Shown here: positions 1,586 to 42,177 of the stretch, piece after piece | Layout: every line of letters begins with the position of its first letter | How positions within the stretch are numbered: the stretch's first letter is position 1 | Virus record (IMG/VR): IMGVR_UViG_3300030012_002710 | Span: 3,718 to 67,717 of that record | DNA: 64,000 nucleotides | Direction: 5' to 3' (one strand) | From: a virus | Notes under the pieces: generated by a model | The model's database searches: none | What the model was told of the DNA's origin: nothing | What the model saw: the letters and a program-made list of their open reading frames with translations, nothing else | Program-made: the position numbers and the translations under genes

Positions 1586-2439
1586 GTGATTTTAATGTAA
1601 TGCTAGCACACCCATACGGCAAAAAAGCGTTTGACAAAGACTCTTTTATTCAGCCAAAACTAGATGGTGTTAGATGCTATATAACCAAAGACGGCGCATT
1701 CAGCCGCAACCACAAAGAGTTTAAAACTGTAGATCACATTAAAGATCTGTTTAAACCTCTATTTGAATTGGCACCCGATATAATACTTGACGGTGAACTC
1801 TACAACCACCAATTTAAAGACAACTTCAATAAAATTATATCCCTTGTGAGAAAACAAAAGCTAACTGATGAAGATAGAGCTGAAGCTAAAAAGTATATAC
1901 AGTTTCATTGGTATGATTTTTACAATCCAAGTGATAAATTTGCAACATACAGAAGAAGACATCAGCTTATTAAACTAAACGTAACAGAGCTGCAATCCAT
2001 ATTTCATAAAATATTAAAATTTCCAATCGTACCAGTTGAAGCATACGAAGTATCCTTACTTGATTCAGCTAAATTATGGCATGATCACTATATTAAAGCT
2101 GGTTATGAAGGTAGTATAATTAGAAACAATAAACCTTATGAACAAAAAAGAAGTTACAACTTACAAAAATTCAAAGATTTCCATGACACAGAAGCGACAA
2201 TTGTTGGCTATGTTGAAGGCAAAGGTAAAAGAAGCGGAACAATTGGCAAGTTCTTGGCTGTTGATAGTAGTGGCATCCATTTCGGCATGCCTGTTATGGA
2301 AGATTATGACACTATGGCAATGATGCTTGTTAATGTCAAAGATTATATTGGCAAAAAAGCTACATTTACATACTTTCAAAAGACGCCTAGAGGATCATAT
2401 AGACATCCTCTATTTAAATCTCTTAGAAATTATGAATAA
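1582..2439 (+). CDS. ATP-dependent DNA ligase
   Basis: QPKLDGVR (motif I, KxDG), ILDGELY, GYEGSIIR, KFK, and a C-terminal OB-fold ending RHPLF. Confidence 0.95.
   Translation: MSDFNVMLAHPYGKKAFDKDSFIQPKLDGVRCYITKDGAFSRNHKEFKTVDHIKDLFKPLFELAPDIILDGELYNHQFKDNFNKIISLVRKQKLTDEDRAEAKKYIQFHWYDFYNPSDKFATYRRRHQLIKLNVTELQSIFHKILKFPIVPVEAYEVSLLDSAKLWHDHYIKAGYEGSIIRNNKPYEQKRSYNLQKFKDFHDTEATIVGYVEGKGKRSGTIGKFLAVDSSGIHFGMPVMEDYDTMAMMLVNVKDYIGKKATFTYFQKTPRGSYRHPLFKSLRNYE
2138..2323 (+). CDS. candidate +1-frame overprinted membrane peptide inside ligase
   Basis: 61-aa ORF with hydrophobic WLLIVVASISACLLW; local shift to C-ending codons in ligase. Confidence 0.35.
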   Translation: MNKKEVTTYKNSKISMTQKRQLLAMLKAKVKEAEQLASSWLLIVVASISACLLWKIMTLWQ

Positions 2440-2698
2440 TCTATCAGATTTAATCGTACCTTTTATGATAGCAATAACTATGGGCTTTAGCGGTTATGCT
2501 GTGGCCCTTATTGCTGATTATATTAGAAAAATAATTATAATACCTTTAATATGTATGTTTGTATTCGATGCAGCTGTATTATTTGGTTATTATTCAATAG
2601 AAACATCCAAGTTACAAATGATGATGGGTGTTATGTTAGGAACGATACTTAAAATAGTATCATTTATATTATATCAAAAATATTTAAGCAATGAGTAG
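2432..2698 (+). CDS. small multi-pass membrane protein
   Basis: ATG at 2432 (MNNLSDLIVPF) overlaps the ligase end; about 3 hydrophobic segments. Confidence 0.7.
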   Translation: MNNLSDLIVPFMIAITMGFSGYAVALIADYIRKIIIIPLICMFVFDAAVLFGYYSIETSKLQMMMGVMLGTILKIVSFILYQKYLSNE

Positions 2699-2798
2699 AA
2701 AATTATTTAATCATATGATAAGTGTTAATTTATTTAACATAAATAATAAACGTAAAAGAAAACAAAATGCTAATAAAAAACAGAAAAAACGGACATAG
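2691..2798 (+). CDS. small basic hypothetical protein (35 aa)
   Basis: Hand-translated MSRKLFNHMISVNLFNINNKRKRKQNANKKQKKRT*; fills the gap and overlaps both neighbours. Confidence 0.45.
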   Translation: MSRKLFNHMISVNLFNINNKRKRKQNANKKQKKRT

Positions 2799-2973
2799 AG
2801 ATTATTTATGGAACTCTATATATGAGTTACGTAAAGATATAACTAATTATGTTTTAAAATGTAAAGCTAAAAATAAACGTATAAAACTACATAAATTAGA
2901 TCACAAAGCAGAATTGATTATAAAGTACTCTGAGAAACTTAAAAAGTTTCAAGAGACACCTACCTTAAGATGA
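2767..2973 (+). CDS. basic hypothetical protein
   Basis: 68-aa ORF in operon context. Confidence 0.6.
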   Translation: MLIKNRKNGHRDYLWNSIYELRKDITNYVLKCKAKNKRIKLHKLDHKAELIIKYSEKLKKFQETPTLR

Positions 2974-3014
2974 CAATAGGTAGTAATATTTAATAGAGTA
3001 ATAGGCTAATGTCA
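2971..3014. promoter_or_regulatory. 44-bp inverted-repeat element (TGACAnTAGGTAGT...GCTAnTGTCA), copy 1
   Basis: Same length and near-identical arms as 63417-63460; overlaps the start codon of the HTH gene. Confidence 0.65.
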
Positions 3015-3617
3015 TACAGGAAAATAGATTATTTAAATAGGAATAGAATTATATACAATAGAGATCCTATAAATGATAAGCCAACAAAAACATTTACCTG
3101 GGGTAAATTTTATGAATACGGAACATACGAGTGCTATGAGTTGTTTAAAAGTAAAGCAAAGATTAATAGTTTTAAATCACTTAAATGGCACTTGTTAGTT
3201 CTAAAATATTTAAACCCAGAGCTTGAAGATAAAGATTTTAATAATCTTGCATATTATATAACAAATAAAAAAAATAATTTTATTACTTTTAATATAAAAC
3301 AAAAGTATTTAATTGACATGTTGGATAACTTAGAAATAGATAGACCTCCAGTTAATAGAAAACGAAAGGTAGTGTTTAATCAACAAACAAAGTTAACAAC
3401 AAAAGAAAAATTACAAATAGTAGGCCAATTAATAGGTAGATCTTCAGTTATAAAACAAGAAGATATTTATCAATGCATGTTAAATTTACATGAGTCAAAT
3501 GAAAAAATAACATGGATTAGAGTTGCAAAACTATTAAACTGTTCTGTAAGAACTATTTATCGTAATTTAAATAAAGAATTAAAAATTGAAAAAATTAATT
3601 TAAATGAAGAAATATAA
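3009..3617 (+). CDS. DNA-binding protein with C-terminal HTH (possible replication initiator or regulator)
   Basis: ITWIRVAKLLNCSVRTIYRNL is a classic helix-turn-helix. Confidence 0.75.
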   Translation: MSYRKIDYLNRNRIIYNRDPINDKPTKTFTWGKFYEYGTYECYELFKSKAKINSFKSLKWHLLVLKYLNPELEDKDFNNLAYYITNKKNNFITFNIKQKYLIDMLDNLEIDRPPVNRKRKVVFNQQTKLTTKEKLQIVGQLIGRSSVIKQEDIYQCMLNLHESNEKITWIRVAKLLNCSVRTIYRNLNKELKIEKINLNEEI

Positions 3618-4356
3618 TATATCTAATTATATTAGATACAAAGAAGATGTAAAAGAATCTCAACCAGTATCAAGCAATGTTATTGAATATAGTAGAAATG
3701 ATTTAATAAATAAGTTTTTACCATTAGTAGAAAATATAGCTAGAAAATTTTCAACTTCACAACAAGCTTCAGGTATATTAGATATAACTGATCTAATACA
3801 AGAAGGATCAATAGGTCTTGTTAAAGCAGTTGATAAATTAGATTATTCAGTCTTATCTGAATCAAAAGATAAAGAAAAAACATTAAAGTCGTTTTTTTTC
3901 AAACGTGTTAAAGGTGCTATACGTAGAGCAATAGATCATAACAGAGGTAATATTAGAATACCTGAACATAAAATGAATGAAATACGTAAAAACCCAAAAG
4001 ACAAAAAAATGGTTGAAATGTTTTTTAATTCTATATTTTTAAGTATAGATAAAAAAACAATGACAGATGATGAAGATATGGTATACCAAATACCTGATCA
4101 ATCTGAACCATACAATATTAATATTCTAAATAGTTATTTAAAAAGTTTAATGAGAAAACATTTAGAAGAAAACGAATATGAAGTTTTAAGACTATCATAT
4201 GGCCTTGATTGTGATAAACATTCTGCTACTCAAATAGCAGATAAAATTAATATCAAAGGACCGAGTGGATATGTAAGAGTTTCTGAGCTTAAAAAGCAAG
4301 CTGTAAGAAAATTAATTGATAATGTAGATCACTCGCAAGTGCTTGATTATCTGTAA
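3604..4356 (+). CDS. phage sigma-70 family RNA polymerase sigma factor
   Basis: LPLVENIARKF, DLIQEGSIGLVKAVDK (region 2), IRIPEH, and a region-4 HTH (EVLRLSYGL...IAD). Confidence 0.92.
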   Translation: MKKYNISNYIRYKEDVKESQPVSSNVIEYSRNDLINKFLPLVENIARKFSTSQQASGILDITDLIQEGSIGLVKAVDKLDYSVLSESKDKEKTLKSFFFKRVKGAIRRAIDHNRGNIRIPEHKMNEIRKNPKDKKMVEMFFNSIFLSIDKKTMTDDEDMVYQIPDQSEPYNINILNSYLKSLMRKHLEENEYEVLRLSYGLDCDKHSATQIADKINIKGPSGYVRVSELKKQAVRKLIDNVDHSQVLDYL

Positions 4357-4365
4357 GATACAGAT

Positions 4366-4395
4366 GTAAATAGCAATTTTAATGTGTAATTATAT
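4366..4395 (+). promoter_or_regulatory. putative middle/late promoter motif B (GTAAA-N15-GTAATTATAT)
   Basis: Intergenic; same 20-bp offset between boxes as the copies at 26440, 50604 and 63360. Confidence 0.5.
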
Positions 4396-4417
4396 ATAAT
4401 ACAAACCCTTTAAACCT

Positions 4418-5665: not shown

Positions 5666-5976
5666 TGGCATCAATAATAAAAACAAGTATTAACCTAAAC
5701 AATATTCCTAAAGATAAGATTATTGTTGGAGCTAAAGGCAAATATTTACCTATTAGTTTAACTTTAAATGATGAAGTAGATCAATTTGGTAATAATGGAC
5801 CTGTTATTGTAGAACAAACAAAAGAAGAAAGAGAATCAAAAGTTGATAAAGTTTATTTAGGTAATGCAAAAGTTGTTTGGACTAACGGTATGAATGTTGA
5901 AGCGGCACCTAGAATGGATCAGCCAAAAGCTATGCCTAAAGCTGAACCAGCTCAAGAACCTGATTTACCATTTTAA
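5665..5976 (+). CDS. single-stranded DNA-binding protein (putative)
   Basis: C-terminal DLPF tail; sits in the recombination cluster. Confidence 0.7.
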   Translation: MASIIKTSINLNNIPKDKIIVGAKGKYLPISLTLNDEVDQFGNNGPVIVEQTKEERESKVDKVYLGNAKVVWTNGMNVEAAPRMDQPKAMPKAEPAQEPDLPF

Positions 5977-6008: not shown

Positions 6009-6011
6009 TAT

Positions 6012-7721
6012 ATGCAAATAACAGAGATCAATGGATTTGTGATTGATAAATTTAATCAACATGGTCTAGAGCAAGGTAAGTCTCAAGGGACATGCCCTTT
6101 ATGCTCACACACTAGACAACCTAAAAATAAAAAGCTTAAATGTGCTTCTTATGATTGGGAACGTGGTCTCGGTACTTGTCACAACTGTAATAAAACATTT
6201 CAATTACATACTTACAAGCGTAAAGGAGACAGTGAAAAAAATTATATTCGTCCAGAATTCAAAAGTCAAAAACCTGTAGGTAGCAAAATAGTTAAATGGT
6301 TTAATGACAGAGGTATATCTCAGTCGACCCTTAATGATTTAAATGTATCTGAGGGTCCTGAGTTTATGCCACAGACAAGTAAGACTGAAAATACAATAAA
6401 GTTCAACTACATGATGGGTGGTGAACTTATAAATATAAAATATAGAGATGGTAGAAAAAACTTTAAATTATATAAAGGCGCAGAAAAAATATTTTATAAT
6501 ATTGATAGTATTATTGGTTATGATGAATGTTATATTGTGGAAGGAGAGATGGATGCTTTATCTTTTCATGAAGTGGGGATCACTAACGTTATATCAGTAC
6601 CTAATGGAGCTACTTTAAACTCTAATAATTTAGATTATTTAGATAACTGTATTGATTATTTTGAAAATAAAAATAAAATAATATTAGCAGTTGATAATGA
6701 TGAAGCAGGCCAAGCACTACAACAAGAATTAATTAGAAGACTAGGTGCAGAAGTTTGTTACATTATAGATTTTAAAGATTGTAAAGATGCTAATGAATAT
6801 TTAATTAAACATGGTAAAGAAGCTTTTTCAAATATTCTCAAACACGCCAAAGCAGTACCTCTTGAAAACGTTACCACTTTTAATGATATTGAAAGTGAAG
6901 TTACAGACTTTGTACAGCATGGTTTTAAACCAGGTTATCAAGCTGGTTTATCCAACTTTGACAAAATTTTTTCAACTTATACAGGACAATTTATTACTGT
7001 TACAGGTATACCTTCTTCTGGTAAGTCTGATTTTGTTGATCAGCTTGTTGTTGGTTATAACATAAATTATAAATGGAAAACAGCTTTTGCATCGCCTGAA
7101 AATGCACCAACCTATTTACATGCACATAAGTTGATGCGTAAAGTTTGGCAAGGTATGCCAACACCAGGTGATATAAATACTAATCAATGGAAAAAAGTAG
7201 CAGAGCATATTAATGATAATTTCTTTTTTATTGATATGGAAAGATATACCCTTGAGTCTGTATTACGTAAAGGTGCAGAGTTAGTTAAACGTAAAGGTAT
7301 TAAATGTCTTGTTATAGATCCTTTTAATAAAATTAGAGATGTAGATTGTAATACTGAAGATGTTAATAAGTATACAATGGAATATCTTACAAAAATAGAA
7401 GTGTTTGCAAAAAAGTTTGATGTGCTAGTTTTTATAGTTGCACATCCAACTAAAATGTATAAAGACAAAGACGGTAAAATTGAAGAACCAAATATGTATA
7501 ATATAAAAGGTGGTGGCGAATGGTATGATGCTTCTTACCATGGTATATTAGTACATAGAGACTACGAAGCTAAAACTGTTAAAGCTAAAGTTTTAAAAGT
7601 TAAGTTTCAAAACTTAGGTGAAAATGGAGCAGAAGCTTATTTTAAATGGGAACCTAAGTCAGGTTGTTTTATACCTCATTTAGATCAACAACAGATTAAT
7701 GATGTAATGCCTTGGGATTAA
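6012..7721 (+). CDS. primase-helicase (T7 gp4/Twinkle-like)
   Basis: Zn finger CPLC...CHNC, TOPRIM EGEMD and DND, Walker A GIPSSGKS, VIDP, VAHP. Confidence 0.95.
   Translation: MQITEINGFVIDKFNQHGLEQGKSQGTCPLCSHTRQPKNKKLKCASYDWERGLGTCHNCNKTFQLHTYKRKGDSEKNYIRPEFKSQKPVGSKIVKWFNDRGISQSTLNDLNVSEGPEFMPQTSKTENTIKFNYMMGGELINIKYRDGRKNFKLYKGAEKIFYNIDSIIGYDECYIVEGEMDALSFHEVGITNVISVPNGATLNSNNLDYLDNCIDYFENKNKIILAVDNDEAGQALQQELIRRLGAEVCYIIDFKDCKDANEYLIKHGKEAFSNILKHAKAVPLENVTTFNDIESEVTDFVQHGFKPGYQAGLSNFDKIFSTYTGQFITVTGIPSSGKSDFVDQLVVGYNINYKWKTAFASPENAPTYLHAHKLMRKVWQGMPTPGDINTNQWKKVAEHINDNFFFIDMERYTLESVLRKGAELVKRKGIKCLVIDPFNKIRDVDCNTEDVNKYTMEYLTKIEVFAKKFDVLVFIVAHPTKMYKDKDGKIEEPNMYNIKGGGEWYDASYHGILVHRDYEAKTVKAKVLKVKFQNLGENGAEAYFKWEPKSGCFIPHLDQQQINDVMPWD
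6811..7065 (+). CDS. candidate +1-frame overprinted membrane protein inside primase-helicase
   Basis: 84 stop-free codons; C-terminal hydrophobic helix; host codons shift to CTC/CTT/GTT/ATT. Confidence 0.4.
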   Translation: MVKKLFQIFSNTPKQYLLKTLPLLMILKVKLQTLYSMVLNQVIKLVYPTLTKFFQLIQDNLLLLQVYLLLVSLILLISLLLVIT

Positions 7722-10352: not shown

Positions 10353-11321
10353 ATGGGATTATTTGACAAAAGAATACCTTATAAACCTTTTGAATATCCA
10401 GAATATTATACAGAAGGTTGGCTTAAACAAGCACAAGCTTTTTGGTTACACACAGAAATACCTATGTCTAGTGATGTAAAAGATTGGAATGAAAAGCTTA
10501 CACCAAGTGAGAAAAACTTAGTTGGTAATATATTACTTGGATTTGCACAAACAGAATGTGCCGTGTCAGATTACTGGACACAAAAAGTAGTAGGATGGTT
10601 TCCTAAACATGAGATACAGCAAATGGCTATGATGTTTGGATCACAAGAAACTATACACGCTGTTGCTTATTCATATTTAAATGAAACTCTTGGTCTTGAA
10701 AATTTTGAAGCGTTTTTACAAGACGAAGCAACAATGGAACGCTTTGATAATTTAGTTAGTTATGATGGAAATAAACCCACAGGAATTGCAAGAAGCATTG
10801 CTATATTTAGCGCCTTTGCTGAAGGTGTTAGCCTTTATTCTGCCTTTGCTGTTTTATATAGTTTTCAGCTCAGAAATCTGTTAAAAGGTATTGGACAGCA
10901 GATGAAATGGAGTGTGCGTGATGAGTCACTGCACAGTAAGATGGGTTGTGCTTTGTTCCGTCATATGTGTGAAGAAGATAAAACATTATTAAATAATTGT
11001 AAAAAAGATATATTAGATGCAGCAAAAACAATGCTTAAAGCAGAAGAAAAATATATTGACAAAATGTTCGAGCAAGGAGATATTGAAAACCTTAAAGCTT
11101 ACAACCTCAAACAATTTATTAGAAAACGTCTCAACGAAAAAATTGTTGAACTCGGTTACAAAGACGAGCGGGACTACTTTAAATTTGACAAAAAAGGAGC
11201 AGAAGATCTTGACTGGTTCTATCATCTTACCGGGGGCCACACTCATACTGATTTTTTTGCTGTGCGTCCGACTGATTATTCAAAAGCTAACGAAGGTGAA
11301 GACTTTGAAGACATGTGGTAA
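10353..11321 (+). CDS. nrdB: ribonucleotide reductase class I beta subunit
   Basis: ETIH.VAY, FAEGVSLYSAF, RDESLH di-iron ligands; DFF C-terminus. Confidence 0.95.
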   Translation: MGLFDKRIPYKPFEYPEYYTEGWLKQAQAFWLHTEIPMSSDVKDWNEKLTPSEKNLVGNILLGFAQTECAVSDYWTQKVVGWFPKHEIQQMAMMFGSQETIHAVAYSYLNETLGLENFEAFLQDEATMERFDNLVSYDGNKPTGIARSIAIFSAFAEGVSLYSAFAVLYSFQLRNLLKGIGQQMKWSVRDESLHSKMGCALFRHMCEEDKTLLNNCKKDILDAAKTMLKAEEKYIDKMFEQGDIENLKAYNLKQFIRKRLNEKIVELGYKDERDYFKFDKKGAEDLDWFYHLTGGHTHTDFFAVRPTDYSKANEGEDFEDMW

Positions 11322-11328
11322 TGATTAA
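11017..11328 (+). CDS. candidate +1-frame overprinted protein inside nrdB
   Basis: 103 stop-free codons; TM-like IILPGATLILIFLLCVRLII; GC-rich nrdB codons in the same span. Confidence 0.45.
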   Translation: MQQKQCLKQKKNILTKCSSKEILKTLKLTTSNNLLENVSTKKLLNSVTKTSGTTLNLTKKEQKILTGSIILPGATLILIFLLCVRLIIQKLTKVKTLKTCGND

Positions 11329-11584: not shown

Positions 11585-11817
11585 AAGAAAGTACAATATT
11601 AGGAAAATTTAAAAAAGTAGAAAAACAAATGTTAGCAATAACAAATGTTATTAAACGTTTAATTCAAGATATAGGATCAGTAGAATCTATAGCTAATGGT
11701 ACATTAAGTGCTTTAAAAATATCAATGACTGAAAAAGAGTGGGATGCTATAGTTGAAGAATTAAAACAAAAACACCAAGAAGAAAATAAACAAACAGATA
11801 AAAAGTTAGAACTATAA
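11581..11817 (+). CDS. hypothetical coiled-coil protein
   Basis: 78-aa ORF abutting both neighbours. Confidence 0.7.
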   Translation: MKESTILGKFKKVEKQMLAITNVIKRLIQDIGSVESIANGTLSALKISMTEKEWDAIVEELKQKHQEENKQTDKKLEL

Positions 11818-13535
11818 TGTGGAATAACGAATGGGAAAAAGGTGTTGATTATCCTTCATGGGGTAACAATGATATATATAAACAAACTATATCTGGTGGT
11901 TATTTATTTAATGGTGAATCACCCCGTGATGCTTACATGCGAGTTGCTAAAACAGTAGCAAAACGTTTATACAAACCAGAACTTGCAGATAAGTTTTTTA
12001 ATTATATATGGAATGGTTGGCTGTGCTTAGCTTCACCTGTGCTATCTAATACTGGTACAGATAGAGGTCTACCAATAAGTTGTTTTGGAATAGACGTAGC
12101 CGATAGTATAAACGATATAGGTAAGAAAAACCTAGAAATGATGTTACTTGCAAAACACGGTGGGGGTGTAGGTATCGGAGTTAATATGATTCGTCCTGCC
12201 GGAGCTAAAATTACAGGTAATGGAACTTCAGACGGCGTTGTCCCTTTTTGCAAAATATACGACTCAACTATACTCGCGACAAACCAAGGCGCCGTTAGAA
12301 GAGGAGCTGCAAGCGTTAATATCAATATTGAACACAACGATTTTCTCGACTGGCTTGAAATTAGAGAACCTAAAGGAGATGTCAATAGACAATCTCTTAA
12401 CTTGCACCAGTGTGCTGTCGTTGGTGATAAGTTTATGCGAAAACTTGAAGCAGGAGATGCAGAAGCTAGAAAAAAGTGGTCAAGACTTATACAAAAACGT
12501 AAAGCCACTGGAGAACCGTATATCTTATTTAAAGGAAATACAAACAAAGCTAATCCAGCAGCATATAAGAAAAATAGTTTAAAAGTACATATGACAAACA
12601 TATGTAGTGAAATAGTATTACAAACAGATGAATCACATAGCTTTGTGTGTTGTTTATCTAGTTTAAATTTAGCAAAATATGAAGAGTGGAAAAACACTAA
12701 TATTATACATGATGCTATATGGTTCCTTGATGGGGTACTTGAAGAGTTTATACAGAAAGCTAAAGGTAAAATTGGGTTTGAAAACTCAGTAAGATCTGCT
12801 GAAAAAGGTAGGGCTTTAGGTCTTGGTGTATTAGGTTGGCATACATATCTTCAAGAAAAAGGTTTACCTTTTGAAGGATTATTAGCTCAATATGAAACAA
12901 GAAAAATATTTAGTCAAATAAAAATAGAATCTGAAAGAGCATCAATGGCTTTAGCTGAAGTTTATGGTGAGCCATTATGGTGTGTTGGTACAGGTATGCG
13001 TAACACTCATTTAAGAGCAATTGCACCAACAGTTTCTAATAGTAAACTAGCAGGTAATATATCACCTGGTATTGAACCATGGGCTGCAAATGTATTTACA
13101 GAGCAGTCTGCTAAAGGTACATTTATAAGAAAAAATCCTACATTAATTAAATTATTAAGAAAATATAAATTAAATACTAATGAAATATGGGATAAAATAT
13201 TAGAAGATGGTGGATCAATACAAGATATAAAAGAACTTGACAATATAGTTTTCGCTAATGATATACCTGTAAAAGAAGTATTTAAAACATTTAAAGAAAT
13301 AAATCAACTAGAATTAGTTGCACAAGCTGGTTTAAGACAACAATATATAGATCAATCAGTATCTCTTAATCTTGCGTTTCCATCAGAAGCAACACCTAAA
13401 TGGATTAATAAAGTACATTTAGAAGCTTGGAAACAAGGTATTAAAACTTTATATTATATGAGAACTGAATCTGTGTTACGTGGAGATATAGCTGCTAAAG
13501 CTATGGATGATTCTTGTGTAGCTTGTGATGGATAA
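11817..13535 (+). CDS. nrdA: ribonucleotide reductase class I alpha subunit (short, no ATP cone)
   Basis: SPVLSN, SCF, GGGVG, TNICSEI, APTVSNS, DQSVSLN, KTLYY, C-terminal CVACDG. Confidence 0.95.
   Translation: MWNNEWEKGVDYPSWGNNDIYKQTISGGYLFNGESPRDAYMRVAKTVAKRLYKPELADKFFNYIWNGWLCLASPVLSNTGTDRGLPISCFGIDVADSINDIGKKNLEMMLLAKHGGGVGIGVNMIRPAGAKITGNGTSDGVVPFCKIYDSTILATNQGAVRRGAASVNINIEHNDFLDWLEIREPKGDVNRQSLNLHQCAVVGDKFMRKLEAGDAEARKKWSRLIQKRKATGEPYILFKGNTNKANPAAYKKNSLKVHMTNICSEIVLQTDESHSFVCCLSSLNLAKYEEWKNTNIIHDAIWFLDGVLEEFIQKAKGKIGFENSVRSAEKGRALGLGVLGWHTYLQEKGLPFEGLLAQYETRKIFSQIKIESERASMALAEVYGEPLWCVGTGMRNTHLRAIAPTVSNSKLAGNISPGIEPWAANVFTEQSAKGTFIRKNPTLIKLLRKYKLNTNEIWDKILEDGGSIQDIKELDNIVFANDIPVKEVFKTFKEINQLELVAQAGLRQQYIDQSVSLNLAFPSEATPKWINKVHLEAWKQGIKTLYYMRTESVLRGDIAAKAMDDSCVACDG
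12220..12582 (+). CDS. candidate +1-frame overprinted helical protein inside nrdA
   Basis: 120 stop-free codons with a concurrent GC/codon shift in nrdA; coiled-coil-like sequence. Confidence 0.55.
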   Translation: MELQTALSLFAKYTTQLYSRQTKAPLEEELQALISILNTTIFSTGLKLENLKEMSIDNLLTCTSVLSLVISLCENLKQEMQKLEKSGQDLYKNVKPLENRISYLKEIQTKLIQQHIRKIV

Positions 13536-21300: not shown

Positions 21301-22311
21301 TAAACCTACACCGTAAGTACTTGCACTAATAGCAGCTGAAGTACCAAAAGCTGTAAAGGCATTAAAACTAGCAGCTAGTCCACCACCAATATAACTAGCT
21401 TTTCCTTCAGGTAAATCTGTAAAACCAATTGTTTGTCTATTAACTTTATTTCTTTTATCTAAGTCTTTTGAAAATTTTATATAAGTATCTTGCCAATATT
21501 TTCTATAATCTTTACTTTCTTCCCAACCAAAAGTATTAGGTAAAATATCTGTATTACTTAATAAAGCTGCTAAAGTTAATCCAGCCCTATTATCTACAGT
21601 ATTTATTTGATTAAAAGCATTTACTATAGTATTATAAGAACTAGTTAAAGCTGACATATCTTTTCCAGTCTGTTTAGGATCAGTAACAGAAGCCATAGCA
21701 TCTATAATTTTTTCACCTGTTTTACCAAGCACTATTTCACCTAATCCTCCTATGTGTGATAAAGCAATTGTATCATCGTCAGGATCACCTAAAATCATTT
21801 TCATTAATTCATCGGCAAATTTATTTTCTTCGTTTTGAGATATTTCTTTATATTTTTCTCCTGTAACTACTACTTCATCTAAATCTAATGGATCAAAACC
21901 TTCTTGTATTTGTCTTAGTTTTGCACCACCTTCTTCTGTAAAAACAGATCCTGTAGATTCTTGATATTGTTGCATAGACTCACCACCTGTATAAAGAGGA
22001 TTACCTTCATAAGATCTTTGATTTAAATACAAAGGGTTTATTTGTTCTTTTACTTTATTATATTTTTCTACTAATTTATTAAACTCTATTATTCTATTAG
22101 GTGAATCCATGTTATCCATTTCCATATCATCACCTGCTATGTTTTTAATTTCTTGTGTTATGCTAGCTAACTCATCTAATTTATTTACAGGATCTTCAGG
22201 TTCAACAGACAAAGGAGTGGCTTCAGGATAAGTTGATACTAAAGTATTTACTACATCTTTCCTATTATTAGGAATAGTATATGTGTCTTTACCAACTTTG
22301 TATTTAAACAT
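15376..22311 (-). CDS. giant internal virion/ejection polyvalent protein (HExxH peptidase, sigma-like domain)
   Basis: 2311 aa; last of three genes after the tail module; HETLH at 20227-20241; helical C-terminal region; FSK-type linkers. Confidence 0.8.
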   Translation of the reverse strand: MFKYKVGKDTYTIPNNRKDVVNTLVSTYPEATPLSVEPEDPVNKLDELASITQEIKNIAGDDMEMDNMDSPNRIIEFNKLVEKYNKVKEQINPLYLNQRSYEGNPLYTGGESMQQYQESTGSVFTEEGGAKLRQIQEGFDPLDLDEVVVTGEKYKEISQNEENKFADELMKMILGDPDDDTIALSHIGGLGEIVLGKTGEKIIDAMASVTDPKQTGKDMSALTSSYNTIVNAFNQINTVDNRAGLTLAALLSNTDILPNTFGWEESKDYRKYWQDTYIKFSKDLDKRNKVNRQTIGFTDLPEGKASYIGGGLAASFNAFTAFGTSAAISASTYGVGLATDMIGSSIQEFNNQKAASLGITLDQLVESGQAETLTPVVLGTAGFLLERAGLKSAIKYINGAPLAQKGALYTLLNLPGPGTTNAVTEWTQFGLEELNRNLATGLTLEEASKNAFETMKSNEGIETLLQGYVGGKGVSVVGRTVKRAMRTKAQNERISNYVRKLGVLENSKYQKNLTTEQINQIEKSQQEIIKKLTETYNENDQLIAALTPAQIKQIEEGSKLLQDLNKKRQGISQNTSVDKKTRDDMLQENQDAINAVSQGIYDIRNTAEKLASNIQTAKDVSRFIDKLEVQDLEDSKAVEKFIKERGLEKEIPKEAPEQQAFIYQDPKTNEQIIIINREFAATDKAVAAPFHETLHALLYKTLKSNPEAAIRMRDALKSELDKLDPSQVENPAFKRRLKSYKDKTEEMQAEEYLTLFVEALNTGNIKYKENFATKVGDVVRRNLQNLGVNIKFNEGRDVYNALKDFNKSMEKGNFTLAQVLLAKEGAEGELIKPEQKSKVVPKKRVSLSKRETQNVNNLAEQYNENRNDKKLEKDLIDQYESVAVAALGYDVRRGTVAPEEALSFVRSQFKSIIDRFDPTKAAFTTHVNANIVPKRQQFYDQLIGDEALTTSIDAPESRQIADTTPEVETTTIKEDKKPTTNPLKLFGLDEKAKTNFVEKTVKELKKLNVNELTYKTLRTLDEQGIADLVGIPAKKIFSPAANLSQPEARKALMFINKNARAIINLLPENNTEVKEVEAKNKPGKKVSIGGLPTGVPRNIQKLFYNKGKRIGNNFQFTKKKDITVESFKKALGIEGNVKSPTFKVRSSTSQALKGMLELIGRAATNTAARQYLQEIGTDPRIIENIGEGRNPVMFSKRNQDVIYDALSAIPDGRGKDAIVESIAEEIRVNPKLINNTEYLEGVIDVALEEAVLAGKEGAKFTKETDNLNYYNLVDKNKLNFKLKPTESLRTIGKKRLKLENTKDVNNFIKNALEITKAINTEDKILLGRRKSFIPGALVGYHRRSTGDGKLEEFYKALDTNTKPKWVSEKTQKLFDKVKTIIPASSFKNVQKKISEAKTREEKIKIAKQNLPALREHQESAKNFFNAFNSLLTDYLYDSKNQKEFENRLDYILKLKRLNSDNVKGERDLVALDGFYLGEPDGPIKLEHVKSSSQQSVQSLKSIVSGTWDTSIANDFKGMFGYKNKFDEIDAYGKTNTSKYYRFYDKNEASKYVLSEFGFEGTIYDKNLISAIQEDLIKSEKLAAPFNNEKLPSVVKFSKRQDYTNDMVLERMAELDLEQAEAQIKFSKSQNLSDDFNKIIENKTGIGAEKVYSDVKAQVVGASKGRFNFFIPPSAEDFMGLLYKTLGKGKLGDAQMAWYKKNLLDPFARAMDNISRDRIALQNDFKKLKQDLKIVPKNLRKKITGEPYTQEQAVRVYIWNLQGMRPEGMSQTDINELVSFVESKPELVTFANELIRLQKGDSYPAPKFGWLAGTITTDLMDGINTIKRAKYLEQWQYNADEIFSRANLNKLEAAYGKNYRVALEGILKRMRTGRNREFNSDTLTGRVTDWLTNSIGAIMFFNTRSAVLQTISAVNFINFKDNNIFAAGKAFANQPQFWKDFMTLMNSDFLVDRRNGLRLNVNENDIADMAKKGGVRGVISEMLRLGFLPTQIADSFAIASGGATFYRNRIKSLQKQGKSKAEAEKEAFLDFREIAEESQQSSRPDRISQQQASPLGRIILAFANTPMQYTRLIKKAASDLKNGRGDAKTNISKIFYYGFAQNLLFNAMQQALFAIGFGDDDETLEEKEKKKQKKYISILNSMADSILRGLGVGGAIVSVLKNTATKLYQEGDKKRPEYQDVVVKEILQISPPISSKVGKVKAAFRTYDWNKKEIMEKGFSLDNPAYLAAGQLLAAGFNIPLDRAFKKIENIRNASSSDYEAWARIAMLAGWADWELGVKPEEKLGPNQRRKTTKTRSKKAKSRSKKVETRKK

Positions 22312-23837
22312 TATTTGTCTTTAAAATTTAATAATTGATCTGCTGGTTTATCAAATGGTGTTAAACTAATATCCTCTACACCAAGTAAAATATCTGCGCT
22401 TTTACCGTATTGAGTAGAAGAATAATTTTTCATTAAATCTAACCAATCAGATGTTGATGTATCAAAAAGATCTAATTCATTTATTAGTTCTTCACTGTCT
22501 CCTTTGTCTTTCCATAATTTTAATTTATTACCTACAACTTCAACAGAAGCTATTTTGCCTTCTTTTGTAGTTATACCTTTTAAAAAGTCAAACGAATTAG
22601 TATCTTTGTTATAATTATTTATTGCATCTTGAAAAGCATTTTCTACTTTTTTAACCGCTGCGTTAGTTCTTATTTCAGATTTAGTTAATTTGTTGTCATC
22701 AGTGCTTTCTTTTGGAACATTTCTAAGTGAACCTTCTTTATCTGCAACAGTTAACGTAGATTTAAATATTTCTTTTTCATTTGTTATTTCATAGTTAGGT
22801 ATTAAAGTCTTAGCTCTTTTTAAATACATTTCTATCCACTTTACTTTTGATTCTTCATCTAAAACTTTTCCACCACTAGCGGTGTCTACAAACTTTAATT
22901 TAAAATCATTATCTTCACCTGCATTTAATTCCCACGTGGCATTAACAGATGCATAATCTTTATCATCTTCTAAATGAGATTCTGCTGCAGCTTGTAATTG
23001 AGTTAAAATTTTACTAGAAATAGCTGCTGTATTATATGGTGTAACGTCATATTGTCTAGTGCCATCAGCGTTTGTTCTAGTAAAACTTCTAGACCTGTCA
23101 AGCATACTAGCATCAAACTTACCAGTTTCAGTATTATAAATACCAGTTTTATCTATTGCTGCTTGAGCAGAAGCTTTCATATCTATAATTACACCAGGTT
23201 CATATTCTAACATAGCACTAATATTTATATCTTCTTTAATACCAGATACAGTGCCAAATAATTGTTTATCTTTAACATAAATAGAATCTAATTTACCTTC
23301 TATTCCTGATATAGCTCTCATAACCTTATGATACTTTTGCGTTTCTTCTCCACCTACTAAAGCAATACCATTAGGTGTATCTGGTTTTGGTGCATCTCCA
23401 GTAAAACCCATATCTTTAAAATAGTCAACTTTACCTTTTTCTAAAACTGTACCTAAAGTAGCTAACAATGATATTGCACTTTGTTTTTCACTTAATAAAT
23501 TCATCAAGTATTGTTTATCTTCCATAGATCCTGTAGAATACTTTATTTGACTTTGTAGCTTAGAAATATCATCCATAGTACCCATGCCATATTTAAAAAA
23601 TACATCTGAATTTATACCAGCATTAGCCATTCTTTTATTAAGCTCTGTTCTATTATCTAAAGCATTTTTAATAATATCAACATTTCTTTTTTCTTCTGCT
23701 TGAGCTTGTTTTGTTTTTCTTTGTTGAATAGTATTCATGGTATTAATGGTAACTTGTGCAATATTATTTATTGCATTAGCCCACATTTTACCTGATTCTG
23801 TATCTATTACGGTTATTGGATTTTCGTATGCTCCCAT
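22311..23837 (-). CDS. putative internal virion/ejection protein
   Basis: 508 aa; position between the small ejection protein and the giant protein. Confidence 0.65.
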   Translation of the reverse strand: MGAYENPITVIDTESGKMWANAINNIAQVTINTMNTIQQRKTKQAQAEEKRNVDIIKNALDNRTELNKRMANAGINSDVFFKYGMGTMDDISKLQSQIKYSTGSMEDKQYLMNLLSEKQSAISLLATLGTVLEKGKVDYFKDMGFTGDAPKPDTPNGIALVGGEETQKYHKVMRAISGIEGKLDSIYVKDKQLFGTVSGIKEDINISAMLEYEPGVIIDMKASAQAAIDKTGIYNTETGKFDASMLDRSRSFTRTNADGTRQYDVTPYNTAAISSKILTQLQAAAESHLEDDKDYASVNATWELNAGEDNDFKLKFVDTASGGKVLDEESKVKWIEMYLKRAKTLIPNYEITNEKEIFKSTLTVADKEGSLRNVPKESTDDNKLTKSEIRTNAAVKKVENAFQDAINNYNKDTNSFDFLKGITTKEGKIASVEVVGNKLKLWKDKGDSEELINELDLFDTSTSDWLDLMKNYSSTQYGKSADILLGVEDISLTPFDKPADQLLNFKDK

Positions 23838-36254: not shown

Positions 36255-37517
36255 TTAATTAAACGTTCTTTTTTTTATTTTCAATTTTGAAGAATCAAGA
36301 CCACTAACTGCTTTTACTTTTAAACCACCTATAAATACTTCTCCAGATGCTGTTTTACGAGGTTCTGTACTAATATTTTTAGATTTTGCTAATTGTTCTT
36401 TTATTGCATCAGTTTTACCTTGCTCATAAAAGTGATTAGCTATAGTATCAACATTTTGTGCTGCATATAAAGCTTTGTGATAACCAGCTGTGTCTTCAAT
36501 TTCTCCACTTTTGCCTAGAAACTTTCCGACAAAATTAGATAAGTCACTTTGGTTATTTGCAACAGATGAAGGATCTTTTATTCCATATCTAAACTTTTTA
36601 TCTCCTAATTTAAAATCAAAACCTTTGAATTCTGGGTTAAGCATTTGTTTAGTATTAGATACAAATCTTTCATGTCTAGCTTTTTGCTGTTCTCTATCTT
36701 CGTTATAGCGATTAAAAAAGTCTATTGCTTTTTGTTGTTCTTGTGTTACGCCAGGCCTCAACTTGATTTCTGCGTAATAATCTTTTTTAAGACCATCTAA
36801 AAAACTTTTAGCTTTTGCTATTTCTTCCTTGTAAGCGAGTTTTTTCTTTTTAATATCTCGCTCTTCATCGACCTCTTCATCATACTTAAAAGTATCTTCA
36901 ATTATAAAATTAACTTCTTCAGCATTTAAATGAGGTTTTGCTTGCTTGTAATATTCATGTAATAATGCTTCATCATTTACTTTACTATAATCAGCATTAA
37001 GTCTGGCATAATCTTCAATTGATCCACCAGTTTCTTCCATAAATTTTACTAATTTTTCTATGTTTTCAGGTAGCTTTTGTGCTTCTGCTTCCTGTAATAC
37101 TTCTTTTTGTTCCGATGTGGTAGTGGTAGTTTCATTGCTTCCTGCCACTCCTGCCTTGTTAGAATTATCTTCTTCATCTGTAATTTCTTGTAAAGGTGAA
37201 TCAGTTTCTATTTTTTCTTCTGACTCTTTATCTTTAACATCGTCGCTGGACTCTTGTATTTGTTCGTCCACCTTAGGGCTATCTCCGGTTTGTTCGCCCA
37301 CATCCACTTTCTCTGTTTCTCCGATTGAAATGGCATCTTTTTCTTCTTTTTTACTTAAATCTACTTTTGTTACTGTAGGTTTTTGTTTTTCTTGTGACAA
37401 AACTTTAGCTTTTTTAACTTTAAAACTACCTTCTGTTTTAACTTCTTCTACAGGTTTTGCCTCTATTTTTGTTTCTTCTTTTACTTCTTCAACTTTTTTC
37501 GTTTCTTTTTTTGACAT
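36255..37517 (-). CDS. capsid scaffolding protein (acidic)
   Basis: E/K-rich disordered N-terminus; located between portal and capsid. Confidence 0.75.
   Translation of the reverse strand: MSKKETKKVEEVKEETKIEAKPVEEVKTEGSFKVKKAKVLSQEKQKPTVTKVDLSKKEEKDAISIGETEKVDVGEQTGDSPKVDEQIQESSDDVKDKESEEKIETDSPLQEITDEEDNSNKAGVAGSNETTTTTSEQKEVLQEAEAQKLPENIEKLVKFMEETGGSIEDYARLNADYSKVNDEALLHEYYKQAKPHLNAEEVNFIIEDTFKYDEEVDEERDIKKKKLAYKEEIAKAKSFLDGLKKDYYAEIKLRPGVTQEQQKAIDFFNRYNEDREQQKARHERFVSNTKQMLNPEFKGFDFKLGDKKFRYGIKDPSSVANNQSDLSNFVGKFLGKSGEIEDTAGYHKALYAAQNVDTIANHFYEQGKTDAIKEQLAKSKNISTEPRKTASGEVFIGGLKVKAVSGLDSSKLKIKKRTFN
37058..37177 (-). CDS. overprinted +1-frame basic peptide (39 aa) inside scaffold
   Basis: Hand-translated MKKIILTRQEWQEAMKLPLPHRNKKKYYRKQKHKSYLKT*. 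Confidence 0.6.
   Translation of the reverse strand: MKKIILTRQEWQEAMKLPLPHRNKKKYYRKQKHKSYLKT
37208..37336 (-). CDS. overprinted +1-frame basic peptide (42 aa) inside scaffold
   Basis: Hand-translated MPFQSEKQRKWMWANKPEIALRWTNKYKSPATMLKIKSQKKK*; N-terminus resembles that of the free-standing gene 13961-14401. Confidence 0.7.
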   Translation of the reverse strand: MPFQSEKQRKWMWANKPEIALRWTNKYKSPATMLKIKSQKKK

Positions 37518-37545
37518 AATAAAATAATATAAAATTAATAATAAA

Positions 37546-39954: not shown

Positions 39955-42177
39955 CTAATTTAGTATTTTTGAATTTACTCCTTTATTATCATATTTTTTG
40001 AAACCTAAAGGTACAGTTGTTAATTTTCTTTCAGCAACAGGTCTATATCTATTTTTATTACAAGCCATAATAGCAAGACCAGAGCTTATAGAAGCATCAT
40101 GTGATGTTCTATTATTAATGTTAAATTGTGCCCAGTCTTCTAATGTGCGTTGAAAATACATATCACCGTAATTTTCACCATCAAATCCTATAAAATTTTC
40201 TATATAATCTTCTATAGCAGCTGCATGAGCTTGTTTTATATCTTCACTAGAATTAGGTATTCCACCTATCTCTCTTTCTGTTACAGATAATTTATTATAT
40301 ATTTTATCAGGTCTATTCATTGAATAACCTCTATAACCTCTACGTTTTAAATAATATAAAAGTCTAGGTTTGTTATTTTCTGCAAGTATAGGCATACCGT
40401 AAAATACAATTGCCATTAAAACATCTTCAAAAAATATTTCTGCAGTTTGTGGTCTAGCTATATACTCTAAAAAAAATGTATTAGGCGGAACATCCGCCAT
40501 TGTAAACTTAGTTAAACCATGTAAAGATCCTTTAGATCCTCTACCGTCAACAGTTCCTGATATATCATATGGATCACAACCAAAAGCACCACAGTCTTCA
40601 TTAGCTGGATATTTTATACCATTTTTAACTATATATCTATTTTGTAAATTAATAGGTGGTGTCCATGAAATAAAAAATCTACCACTGTTATTAGGAACAA
40701 ATATAACTCTAGTATCTTTAATCCCACTTTCCCATTGAAAATTACCTTGTGTAATTGCTGTAGAGTGTTTTAAATCTTCATTATAATCTATTTGTTCATA
40801 AATTTTTGCAAGATTAAATAAAGATTCTTTAGCTTCATCTCTAAAAGCATGTTTTTCTGTTCTTGGAAATTGTCTATATAATTCGTTTAAACCGTCTTGA
40901 TCATCTTTTAAACCTTCAACTTCGTTTTCCCAGTGTGATATAACCCCGATCTCAATTGTTGTTCCATCGATGCTTTTAACTGGTTTTTCTGGTGTGTCGA
41001 ATACAGGAAAGCCATAAGTATCGATGTATCCTTCGTAGTTCCATTCCATAGGTATGAACAAAGAATATAATCCTGAACCAGTCTGTCCGTTGCGGTTTCT
41101 TTTTGTAACGTCTGAAGCATCATATAGTTTTTTAAAATTAGCACCACCTTTATCTAAAGCATTAGAGGTAGAACCCATCATACATTTACCTACAATCCTA
41201 CTTCCAAGTCTTAACGTTGTCTTCGTGACCCTCCAGTTGTTGAGGATGTTGTCCGGTCTCTCCCATTTACCCGACTCATCATGGGCGAGTAACCTGAGTT
41301 TCTCCCCGTCGTAGGAGTTGTCACCGGTATTCTTCCAGTCAATGGTAGTATCGAGCCCGATGAGTTCCTCGGGGGTGTCGTTCTGCTCGATCTTACGGCG
41401 GGTGAACTTCGATGCCGGTACCCTGTATGCCAACTCAGTCTTTGGCCTGTCCATACCGTCCTGAATTGGTTTGAAAAAAAACGGGTAGTTGACCGATATG
41501 GGTACCACTTTATCTGTGAACATCTTCTTTGCATCTGCACCAGTCTTGGATAAAATGCCATACCTGGAGTCAGCGGAAATTGTAGCTTGATGAACGAGTT
41601 CTGAGGATGCCATGAAGCTAAAGCCAGACCGTCTATTCTTGAGGTAACACATTCCATAGGATCTATGATCCAACTTACACGCTTCCCAGAATATAAAGAA
41701 TAAGCGGTTTGATTCTCTGAACTGCGCAGAGCCAACGTCAATTTTTGTCCACTGCAAGTACATATAATGAGAGCCAGTAATGTAAGTAGGAATACCTTTG
41801 TTATAGAAGCTAAAGCCTTGTTCCCTTCTTTTAAACTCTTCATCAATATAATCATACCATTTATTTTTAAAATCAAGCGATGTTTGATTCCAATCAAAAA
41901 CAGTTTTTAATTTAGTTAATTGTTTTGGATAATCAAAAACCTCCCAATATTGCTCTTGTTTTTTATTAGATCTTTTATACGTTTTTTCTAGTAAAGGTAA
42001 AGCTATTTTTAAACCTTGTATTTCATATATTTCACCAATTTTACCAGTTTTACTTATAATAATAACATCATATTCTTTATTATAACCTGGTTCCCATTTA
42101 TTATATCTATTATTTCTAGCTATAATTTTTGGTTTTATATGATTATCTAAAACTTTATATAATGTTTGTTTATACAT
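39955..42177 (-). CDS. terL: terminase large subunit
   Basis: Walker A-like LKNRRSGFS, Walker B LAHDESGK, GST coupling motif, nuclease GCDPYD, ENNK and HD motifs. Confidence 0.92.
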   Translation of the reverse strand: MYKQTLYKVLDNHIKPKIIARNNRYNKWEPGYNKEYDVIIISKTGKIGEIYEIQGLKIALPLLEKTYKRSNKKQEQYWEVFDYPKQLTKLKTVFDWNQTSLDFKNKWYDYIDEEFKRREQGFSFYNKGIPTYITGSHYMYLQWTKIDVGSAQFRESNRLFFIFWEACKLDHRSYGMCYLKNRRSGFSFMASSELVHQATISADSRYGILSKTGADAKKMFTDKVVPISVNYPFFFKPIQDGMDRPKTELAYRVPASKFTRRKIEQNDTPEELIGLDTTIDWKNTGDNSYDGEKLRLLAHDESGKWERPDNILNNWRVTKTTLRLGSRIVGKCMMGSTSNALDKGGANFKKLYDASDVTKRNRNGQTGSGLYSLFIPMEWNYEGYIDTYGFPVFDTPEKPVKSIDGTTIEIGVISHWENEVEGLKDDQDGLNELYRQFPRTEKHAFRDEAKESLFNLAKIYEQIDYNEDLKHSTAITQGNFQWESGIKDTRVIFVPNNSGRFFISWTPPINLQNRYIVKNGIKYPANEDCGAFGCDPYDISGTVDGRGSKGSLHGLTKFTMADVPPNTFFLEYIARPQTAEIFFEDVLMAIVFYGMPILAENNKPRLLYYLKRRGYRGYSMNRPDKIYNKLSVTEREIGGIPNSSEDIKQAHAAAIEDYIENFIGFDGENYGDMYFQRTLEDWAQFNINNRTSHDASISSGLAIMACNKNRYRPVAERKLTTVPLGFKKYDNKGVNSKILN
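40908..41123 (-). CDS. candidate second +1-frame overprinted protein inside terL (71 aa from ATG 41123)
   Basis: Stop-free +1 frame coinciding with a second GC-elevated patch of terL. Confidence 0.4.
   Translation of the reverse strand: MMLQTLQKETATDRLVQDYILCSYLWNGTTKDTSILMAFLYSTHQKNQLKASMEQQLRSGLYHTGKTKLKV
41211..41843 (-). CDS. overprinted +1-frame putative lipoprotein inside terL
   Basis: 228-codon open frame (41211-41897); signal-like KVFLLTLLALIICTC; R/S/T/P-rich tail; about 55% GC counted over 41281-41400 vs 22-27% in sampled flanking terL. Confidence 0.7.
   Translation of the reverse strand: MKSLKEGNKALASITKVFLLTLLALIICTCSGQKLTLALRSSENQTAYSLYSGKRVSWIIDPMECVTSRIDGLALASWHPQNSFIKLQFPLTPGMAFYPRLVQMQRRCSQIKWYPYRSTTRFFSNQFRTVWTGQRLSWHTGYRHRSSPAVRSSRTTPPRNSSGSILPLTGRIPVTTPTTGRNSGYSPMMSRVNGRDRTTSSTTGGSRRQR

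Follow-up and report, generated by a model that had tools for sequence, protein, structure and literature searches.

Are the open reading frames (ORFs) nested in the core genes of a double-stranded DNA phage genes in their own right, or are they what an AT-rich genome produces by chance? The question is raised by a 64,000-nucleotide stretch of viral DNA (hereafter the window), which comprises bases 3718-67717 of the IMG/VR record IMGVR_UViG_3300030012_002710, a phage record of 67,717 bases that CheckV rates as complete. A first-pass annotation, made from the letters alone, had proposed that about ten small genes are overprinted in the +1 frame of six core genes: ligase, primase-helicase, nrdB, nrdA, terL and a gene named 'scaffold'. 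Comparison with metagenomic homologues brings that figure nearer to four to seven. At least four of the ten (terL-a, scaffold-b, the ORF in nrdA and the conserved core of nrdB-b) are likely to be real nested coding genes and are strongly supported, and three more with moderate support (the 84-residue primase-helicase ORF, nrdB-a and terL-b) probably belong with them. The proposed second coding layer, kept by selection, accordingly stands for terL, nrdA, nrdB, 'scaffold' and probably primase-helicase, and falls for the ligase ORF, scaffold-a and the 42-residue primase-helicase ORF.

Stop avoidance in the +1 frame

All ten nested ORFs are present as proposed (Table 1), each on the strand of its host gene, offset by +1 to it and divisible by three in length. 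The names given to the hosts were borne out by Pfam for ligase, primase-helicase, nrdB and nrdA and by PHROGs for terL, and not for 'scaffold', which matches no family in Pfam or PHROGs; PHROGs also identify a portal and a capsid-like protein in the window. As the match of terL to phrog_6681 is a single stretch, the host frame is unbroken across both of its nested ORFs. The GC content of the window is 26-38% (about 30% overall), with higher values (0.35-0.385) in the block 50000-64000, and the median third-position GC content (GC3) of its genes is 0.10 (928 forty-codon windows). A +1 stop is made where a Leu, Ile or Val codon ending in TA (NTA) precedes a purine, and at NTG-A junctions. The shift in host codons and the rise in GC that had been described for these spans were confirmed, host GC3 in the open runs being 0.15-0.53 against the window median.

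Table 1. Host genes and nested features, with positions given in the window (aa, amino acids; E, E-value).
Feature	Position	Strand	Description	Match or support
Ligase nested ORF	2138-2323	+	+1 ORF, 61 aa	not supported
Primase-helicase	6012-7721	+	host gene	Pfam Toprim_2 E 1.4e-16, DnaB_C E 2.5e-9
Primase-helicase nested ORF (42 aa)	6151-6279	+	+1 ORF, 42 aa	weak, within chance
Primase-helicase nested ORF (84 aa)	6811-7065	+	+1 ORF, 84 aa, very hydrophobic C-terminus	moderately supported
nrdB	10353-11321	+	host gene, ribonucleotide reductase small subunit	Pfam Ribonuc_red_sm E 7.3e-56
nrdB-a	10762-10884	+	+1 ORF, 40 aa, short copy of a conserved ORF of about 66 aa	moderately supported
nrdB-b	11017-11328	+	+1 ORF, 103 aa; last ~62 codons (from 11134) are the conserved core	core strongly supported
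nrdA	11817-13535	+	host gene, ribonucleotide reductase large subunit	Pfam Ribonuc_red_lgC E 8.4e-94, Ribonuc_red_lgN
nrdA nested ORF	12220-12582	+	+1 ORF, 120 aa	strongly supported
'Scaffold'	36255-37517	-	host gene, 420 aa, between portal and major capsid gene	80 homologues, 53-77% identity
Scaffold-a	37058-37177	-	+1 ORF, 39 aa	not supported
Scaffold-b	37208-37336	-	+1 ORF, 42 aa, basic, begins MPFQSEKQ	strongly supported
terL	39955-42177	-	host gene, large terminase, 740 aa	phrog_6681, residues 26-737, E 1.4e-164
terL-b	40908-41123	-	+1 ORF, 71 aa	moderately supported
terL-a	41211-41897	-	+1 ORF, 228 aa from TTG 41897, 214 aa from conserved ATG 41855	strongly supported
terL-a hydrophobic segment	41763-41813	-	helix-forming, residues 15-31 of the 214-aa form

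When synonymous codons were shuffled within each of the 59 ORF-defined genes of the window, 6.9 open +1 runs of at least 60 codons were expected and 16 were seen; at 100 codons or more the figures were 0.18 and 3, and at 120 or more 0.05 and 2. The runs in terL (231 codons), nrdA (130) and nrdB (100) exceed this null, and the others lie within it. As some 39 runs of at least 40 codons are expected in a window by chance (and 1.4 of at least 80), the small nested ORFs are not individually significant from the window alone.

The comparison was extended to 56-80 metagenomic homologues for each host gene, and totals such as 81 count the window copy too. The terL set consists of 80 IMG/VR homologues with 74-90% amino-acid identity plus the window, the nrdA set of 81 sequences (82-92%), the nrdB set of 76 and the ligase set of 57; their mean pairwise synonymous codon difference of 0.43-0.46 marks them as well diverged. 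In this comparison seven of the open frames were supported and three rejected.

The clearest sign lies in the codons that the host genes use. Across the sequences that bear terL-a, NTA codons fill 2 of 538 places before a purine within the span, against 368 of 639 before a pyrimidine, and codons ending in TG occur in 0 of 181 places before A against 140 of 552 otherwise. In the rest of terL the use of NTA is the same in both contexts (0.66 before purine, 0.65 before pyrimidine), and the 20 homologues without terL-a use NTA in the same span 102 times in 185 before a purine and 151 in 205 before a pyrimidine. Columns of the terL alignment that precede a purine alternate among CTT, CTC and TTG, between GTT and GTC or between ATT and ATC and shun NTA, while before a pyrimidine NTA dominates. 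The nrdA span shows 17/1080 before purine against 354/601 before pyrimidine, its purine-followed columns switching among GTT/GTC, CTT/CTC and ATT/ATC with almost no NTA; the corresponding counts are 10/527 against 33/114 for codons 260-322 of nrdB, 15/419 against 103/167 for codons 120-160 of the same gene, 21/312 against 86/188 for the 'scaffold' span and 48/559 against 136/253 for codons 285-340 of primase-helicase. Elsewhere in the same host genes the proportions are 0.31-0.66 and 0.56-0.72. At the level of sequence comparison, selection on host synonymous codons is thereby shown to hold the supported +1 frames open.

It is scarcely credible that an AT-rich genome produced all ten ORFs by chance, although the shuffle null does supply many short runs and chance appears to be the right explanation for three of them. 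The ligase ORF is open in 5 of 57 sequences, with 2.86 stops against 3.56 expected, and shows no avoidance of NTA before purine (0.39, against 0.42 in the rest of the gene). Scaffold-a is open in 17 of 81 (1.86 stops, 1.62 expected) and reaches 40 residues in just 9, and the 42-residue primase-helicase ORF is open in 39 of 81 (0.72 stops, 1.32 expected). On these counts the three are best read as chance open frames. For the seven supported ORFs the comparisons already refute chance: besides the excess of runs of at least 100 codons, the frames are conserved in 76-81 divergent homologues, and in +1 only.

The signal is also specific. We scanned five alternative frames in each of the 25 window genes for which 11 or more homologues were available, a set that leaves out about 30 of the 59 genes, including a 2311-residue gene and the 50-64 kb block. 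Eight conserved stop-depleted patches were found in the +1 frame, confined to 'scaffold', terL, nrdB, nrdA and primase-helicase, and two more in the codon-aligned antisense frame, where they coincide with the terL and nrdB patches. None was found in the +2 or the other two antisense frames, nor in the remaining 20 scanned genes, among them portal, capsid and an 1803-residue gene.

A passive origin might still be proposed, in which the +1 frames lie open as a by-product of locally GC3-rich or 'optimal' codons, brought about by recombination with a GC-richer donor, codon optimisation at conserved residues or clusters of rare codons. Sequences with a higher GC3 have fewer +1 stops (r = -0.83 across terL homologues, r = -0.20 across window bins), the nested spans occupy the best-conserved parts of conserved enzymes, and the antisense patches coincide with those in terL and nrdB; moreover, when a tree is built from the remainder of terL, the presence and absence of terL-a is non-monophyletic, a pattern compatible with recombination. 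However, NTA is used normally within the spans before a pyrimidine (0.46-0.62; 0.29 in nrdB-b) and is missing only where a stop would arise. When codons were shuffled inside the open terL span only (2000 synonymous shuffles with local codon usage preserved), 1.9-9.1 stops were still expected, and the probability of none was at most 0.0095 in 58 of the 60 sequences and 5.5% and 7.9% in the other two. The nrdA span is without a GC3 island in the homologues and still holds 0.1 stops where about 6 are expected, and stops in the +2 frame show no depletion. The within-span shuffle and the context-specific use of NTA already largely refute codon usage as the cause, and we consider it very improbable. 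A recent GC-rich recombination patch as sole cause was rejected, as was RNA structure, against which the frame-specific avoidance of stops argues (no folding was done).

terL-a and the recoding of its host gene

At the position of terL-a, 60 of the 81 terL sequences carry an open +1 run of 140-266 codons, 20 carry 9-17 stops and one is intermediate. Codons 121-330 of terL also form the most extreme GC3 island of the window (0.43-0.77, against 0.00-0.20 elsewhere in the gene). Stop avoidance alone is insufficient to explain this rise, because only codons with T at the second position can create +1 stops, and GC3 over terL-a is 0.39, 0.45, 0.54 and 0.35 for codons with T, C, A and G at that position, with controls at 0.08-0.26. 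The island follows the extent of the ORF: GC3 over codons 296-320 is 0.64 in the 26 sequences whose ORF extends that far, 0.26 in the 34 whose ORF has ended by codon 293 and 0.22 in the 20 ORF-less homologues, and the 34 homologues with a short ORF have a GC3 of 0.41 within it and 0.24 past it (Wilcoxon p = 4e-7). Compared with a virtual translation of the ORF-less clade, the terL-a product is enriched in S+T+P+G+R+A (43% against 15.5%) and poor in L+I+V+F+M (about 23.5% against about 41%). Taken together, these patterns argue that third positions in terL are under selection for the composition of the +1 product.

The ATG of terL-a lies at host codon 107 in 38 of the 60 sequences that bear it, and most of the others have an ATG upstream of the hydrophobic segment. 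The product has a short basic N-terminus, then the hydrophobic segment (17-residue Kyte-Doolittle maximum 2.40 in the window copy, mean 2.38 in the 60 homologues), then a tail that is 82-189 residues long (110-190 in every sequence except one), has a mean net charge of +14 and contains 51% S/T/P/G/R/Q/N. The first-pass description of lipoproteins is not supported for terL-a, as its Cys is preceded by L-I-T/I, which is not the usual lipobox, and is itself forced by conserved Met-Tyr codons of the host. A total of 97 database proteins, mostly of about 214 residues and unnamed, match terL-a at E <=0.01; given the conserved ATG, they are probably the same nested ORF as called by other pipelines.

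A quick tree of terL outside the nested ORF, with support from the Shimodaira-Hasegawa-like approximate likelihood-ratio test (SH-aLRT), does not place the sequences without terL-a in a single clade: eight changes are required, at least three of them forced by well-supported branches. Sister pairs that differ in ORF state have a host amino-acid identity over the span of 0.83-0.94, with a synonymous difference of 0.46-0.66 there and 0.27-0.42 elsewhere (1.4-2.2 times). As such pairs keep the host protein and differ at synonymous codons, the recoding of terL is synonymous. The scattered presence of terL-a possibly reflects either repeated loss or recombination. Between the window and one homologue (L001), the synonymous difference at 41211-41700 is 0.44, and 0.29 in the rest of the gene.

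The second ORF of this gene, terL-b, has its ATG at host codons 351-355 in 59 of 81 sequences and reaches at least 40 residues in 70. Over codons 380-415 the 51 closer relatives carry 0.04 stops against 2.67 expected, and the ORF coincides with the lowest ratio of observed to expected synonymous divergence (O/E) in terL, 0.63-0.75; this counts for less, however, over codons 360-380, where a stop has no opportunity to arise.

Nested ORFs of nrdA, nrdB, primase-helicase and 'scaffold'

The nrdA ORF has regular boundaries: of 81 sequences, 75 share its ATG (host codon 134), 74 share the end of the open run (codon 254), and 78 have an ORF of at least 40 residues (median 120). Codons 140-240 hold about 0.1 +1 stops per sequence, where the sequences' own codon usage predicts about 6, and the span forms no GC3 island in the homologues, with 22-36% there against 20-30% elsewhere. 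As a control, all six bacterial nrdA genes examined (about 43% identity, GC3 0.25-0.47) have 7-9 +1 stops in the span. AlphaFold models the product as four main helices and a one-turn helix, with a predicted local distance difference test score (pLDDT) of 71 and a predicted template modelling score (pTM) of 0.65.

Several further observations concern nrdA. Most relatives carry a second +1 ORF over host codons 287-418 (12678-13073 in the window), with a median length of 131 residues and a hydrophobic C-terminus; it reaches at least 40 residues in 76 of 81 sequences, with ATG at codon 287 in 55, and codons 340-400 use NTA 21 times in 350 before a purine and 299 in 556 before a pyrimidine. In the window this ORF is broken or lost, with an open run of 19 codons left. 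The longest alternative-frame ORF of the window, 231 residues, lies antisense in nrdA (12002-12697, minus strand); it is stop-free in 0 of 80 homologues, with a median of 5 stops, and serves as a chance control. Another 42 nrdA matches labelled as genomes (57-89% identity, mostly 80-89%) lie on short contigs of metagenome-assembled genomes (MAGs) assigned to Aliivibrio, Nitrosomonadales, Thiothrix, Nitrospirae and others, and probably come from phages, their contigs having been wrongly binned with bacterial genomes.

What is conserved of nrdB-b is a 62-residue ORF, with ATG at codon 260 in 59 of 76 sequences and its end at codon 321 in 75 of 76, whose product combines a hydrophobic segment and a basic tail. 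The window copy lacks the codon-260 ATG and starts upstream instead, with an N-terminal extension that is nearly window-specific (the full span 221-325 is stop-free in only 4 of 76), and overshoots the nrdB stop by 7 nucleotides. The window copy of nrdB-a begins only at codon 136; its homologues start at codon 117 (44 of 76) or 109 (19 of 76), and 70 of the 76 have an ORF of at least 40 residues. Both start and end vary for the 84-residue primase-helicase ORF (ATG at codon 266 in 38 of 81 and at codon 294 in 20), and just 46 of the 81 sequences are open from end to end. Its hydrophobic core is conserved, and 94-95% of sequences have no stop in codons 300-340.

The ATG of scaffold-b is at host codon 60 in 75 of 81 sequences, and its 42-codon frame is open in 72. 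The N-terminal ~140 residues of the 'scaffold' host are rich in E and K, gappy and variable, and the sole conserved island in this stretch coincides with the start of the scaffold-b peptide. The scaffold-b peptides align as a family with in-frame indels of their own, and theirs is the only nested ORF with detectable purifying selection at the amino-acid level: in an OLGenie-like test of the +1 protein, its dNN/dNS is 0.33 against a median of 0.66 for a null resampled within the gene, and 0 of 500 resamples were as low. Sixteen of 32 members match phrog_1375 at E <=0.01 (best 4.3e-5; window copy 0.0054), and hhalign aligns the family from Met1, over 32 columns, to a free-standing protein, gp48 of Streptomyces phage FlowerPower (97.3% probability, E 1.9e-11). 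Like gp48 and phrog_1375, scaffold-b has an N-terminal MPF/YKSxKQ motif and a downstream W; gp48 differs in being free-standing, 72 residues long and adjacent to a holin gene, whereas scaffold-b sits inside the variable N-terminal region of its host. Phages C75C1 and P-RSP2 have further free-standing relatives, of 35-47 residues, which lie in intervals that separate annotated genes.

This evidence identifies scaffold-b, by sequence, as a genuine gene of the phrog_1375 family. It also makes the term overprinted, in its sense of de novo origin, doubtful for scaffold-b, as the family is free-standing in other phages; the host N-terminal extension, and not scaffold-b, may be the younger layer in this stretch. 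In FlowerPower the genes that flank gp48 are annotated as 'peptidase' and 'holin', and by analogy this neighbourhood hints at a lysis-related context for the scaffold-b family.

The positions of the starts bear on programmed +1 ribosomal frameshifting, through which the N-terminus of TerL or NrdA would be fused to an alternative C-terminus. Such a product could be suspected from the many terL homologues whose open run starts 6-50 codons before the first ATG (codons 56-101, with the ATG at 107). In most homologues, however, the conserved ATG is preceded by a +1 stop at a distance of 1-8 codons. For nrdA, 43 of 81 sequences have an open run that begins at codon 132 (ATG 134); in nrdB the run begins at 256 (ATG 260) and in 'scaffold' at 52-59 (ATG 60). 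Nine terL homologues have their last stop at codon 110-112, past the usual ATG, and use the next one, and the free-standing relatives of scaffold-b begin at the same Met. On account of the upstream +1 stops we regard programmed +1 frameshifting as a highly unlikely source of these frames (no search for slippery sites was made). The sequence upstream of the starts is A-rich in nrdB (62%) and 'scaffold' (61%) and not in nrdA, and was set aside as evidence.

Selection on the +1 proteins and their possible roles

A number of results weigh against reading the supported ORFs as protein-coding genes, and most concern the proteins themselves. No product of the ten nested ORFs had a significant match in Pfam above the curated cut-offs; those of terL-a, the nrdA ORF and nrdB-b matched nothing in PHROGs, and a tblastn search of 50,697 phage records with terL-a and the ORF in nrdA gave no match and no cultured relative. 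The nrdA model found no fold in PDB and BFVD at E <=0.001, generic helical bundles being the only hits, and the terL-a model is of low confidence (overall pLDDT 40.8), with a helix at residues 13-36 and the rest below 50. Purifying selection was not detected for terL-a (dNN/dNS 0.90, controls 0.71-0.72), the nrdA ORF (0.82, null 0.81) or the nrdB +1 proteins, and the 84-residue primase-helicase ORF lies above its null at 1.10. The first-pass annotation had predicted suppressed synonymous variation; the O/E is 0.84-1.02 over the nrdA ORF, and over the terL-a tail the prediction was contradicted, with synonymous divergence at 1.17-1.31 times expectation. When an AT-rich gene is translated in +1, hydrophobic segments are to be expected and so a weak sign of function, and the conserved ATGs rely on the host codons TAT, AAT and GAT, which are favoured genome-wide anyway. 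The promoter motif TAnnTTTG is the same upstream of the terL-a start in ORF-bearing and ORF-lacking terL, and so gives no sign of an internal promoter. Finally, the homologues are related to each other, and counts across them are of non-independent events.

Some of these points admit of explanation. The power of dNN/dNS is low, as synonymous sites (dSN, dSS) have reached saturation and even the control regions have ratios of 0.6-0.8. Either the +1 proteins outside scaffold-b tolerate much change, or the tests must be underpowered at this divergence. The raised synonymous divergence over terL-a may be due to the greater codon entropy that comes with a GC3 of about 0.5, or to diversifying selection acting on the nested protein.

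The same results lend themselves to an account in which the frames are translated and the peptide is irrelevant, translation itself tuning the expression of the host gene or the stability of its mRNA in cis, as an internal regulatory ORF would. Stops are excluded while the +1 amino acids evolve almost freely, and several products resemble default +1 translations, being hydrophobic or rich in K and N. Mere ribosome transit would not, however, need the recoding of terL third positions in every codon class; scaffold-b has both purifying selection and free-standing homologues; and the nrdA ORF has a fixed start and stop and a helical model of moderate confidence. We therefore consider an irrelevant peptide unlikely, and return to the reading of the supported ORFs as protein-coding genes.

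It is plausible, on that reading, that ribosomes starting at internal +1 ATGs would translate the nested ORFs from the mRNA of the host gene. Host codons are constrained only where a +1 stop threatens, with TA-ending Leu, Ile and Val codons excluded only before a purine and TG-ending codons only before A; in terL, third positions are in addition driven to G or C, shifting the +1 product from its hydrophobic default to a basic tail rich in S/T/P/R/G. The predicted products are a single-pass, membrane-anchored protein with a basic disordered tail of 110-190 residues (terL-a), a 120-residue four-helix protein (nrdA ORF), small hydrophobic peptides (nrdB and primase-helicase ORFs) and a 42-residue basic protein of the phrog_1375 family (scaffold-b). 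The terL-nested gene would serve an accessory function and be repeatedly lost; at the level of a weak guess, terL-a might act at the membrane late in infection.

A more far-reaching version of this model is tentative, and we think it rather less probable than not. It would have a widespread, uncultured phage lineage carry a +1 layer of at least six proteins, in terL, nrdA (two in most members), nrdB (two), primase-helicase and the capsid-assembly gene. In this lineage terL-a would have recoded GC3 from about 10% to 50-77% and been lost at least three times, the codons then relaxing back. Its function might be of use under certain conditions, for instance in host takeover, in superinfection exclusion or as anti-defence, and diversifying selection on it could explain the raised synonymous divergence of terL over the ORF.

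Known systems offer parallels of layout. In Rz/Rz1 of lambda and other embedded two-component spanins, as in terL-a, a small same-strand +1 gene lies wholly within another, and Rz1 likewise has a hydrophobic segment, then a Cys, then a proline-rich region. Unlike Rz1, terL-a lies in terL and not in an inner-membrane spanin gene, has no usual lipobox and no lysis-cassette context, and is 214 residues long with a strongly basic tail, where mature outer-membrane spanins have about 40-60. An embedded outer-membrane spanin of the Rz1 type was rejected as an identity for terL-a on account of its host gene and of the L-I-T or L-I-I that precedes Cys in the homologues. The lysis proteins E of phiX174 (inside gene D) and L of MS2 are also overprinted in +1 in essential genes and combine a single transmembrane segment with a basic region of poor conservation, but they belong to tiny single-stranded DNA and RNA phages pressed for genome size, in contrast to a 67.7-kb double-stranded DNA genome, and share no sequence similarity with terL-a. 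The resemblance of terL-a to these lysis proteins and to Rz1 is one of layout only. Among the same-strand nested small ORFs of bacteria, GndA of E. coli (PMC11230408) is an out-of-frame small ORF in a conserved enzyme gene that annotation missed; it is bacterial and below 50 residues, whereas the phage ORFs are several, reach 214 residues and are supported by comparison of metagenomic phages. A literature search that covered its sources in part found no description of nested ORFs in phage terL, nrdA or nrdB, nor of several such ORFs in the core genes of a large double-stranded DNA phage. Nested +1 phage genes are as a kind already known, and, as far as those sources go, these particular ones appear new.

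By terL DNA the closest cultured relatives of this marine phage infect Flavobacterium, Tenacibaculum and Maribacter (60-80% identity, and that over portions of terL only), from which we infer a Flavobacteriia-type host. Two further genes of the window, of 693 residues (54275-56356) and 508 residues (22311-23837), had no IMG/VR relatives in a pattern scan; they look variable and are probably concerned with host interaction.

Gene finders forbid long same-strand overlaps, and such proteins are for that reason absent from phage annotations and most protein families. If the second coding layer is real, a 67.7-kb double-stranded DNA phage that is not short of space would still evolve genes within its most conserved genes. 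The avoidance of NTA and NTG only before a purine or A, together with local GC3 islands, would provide a signature that can be sought in metagenomes without expression data. Codon anomalies in terL, a common phylogenetic marker, may then be the mark of a second gene and not of transfer or recombination, and the repeated loss of terL-a, with relaxation of the host codons, would amount to a natural experiment in what dual coding costs.

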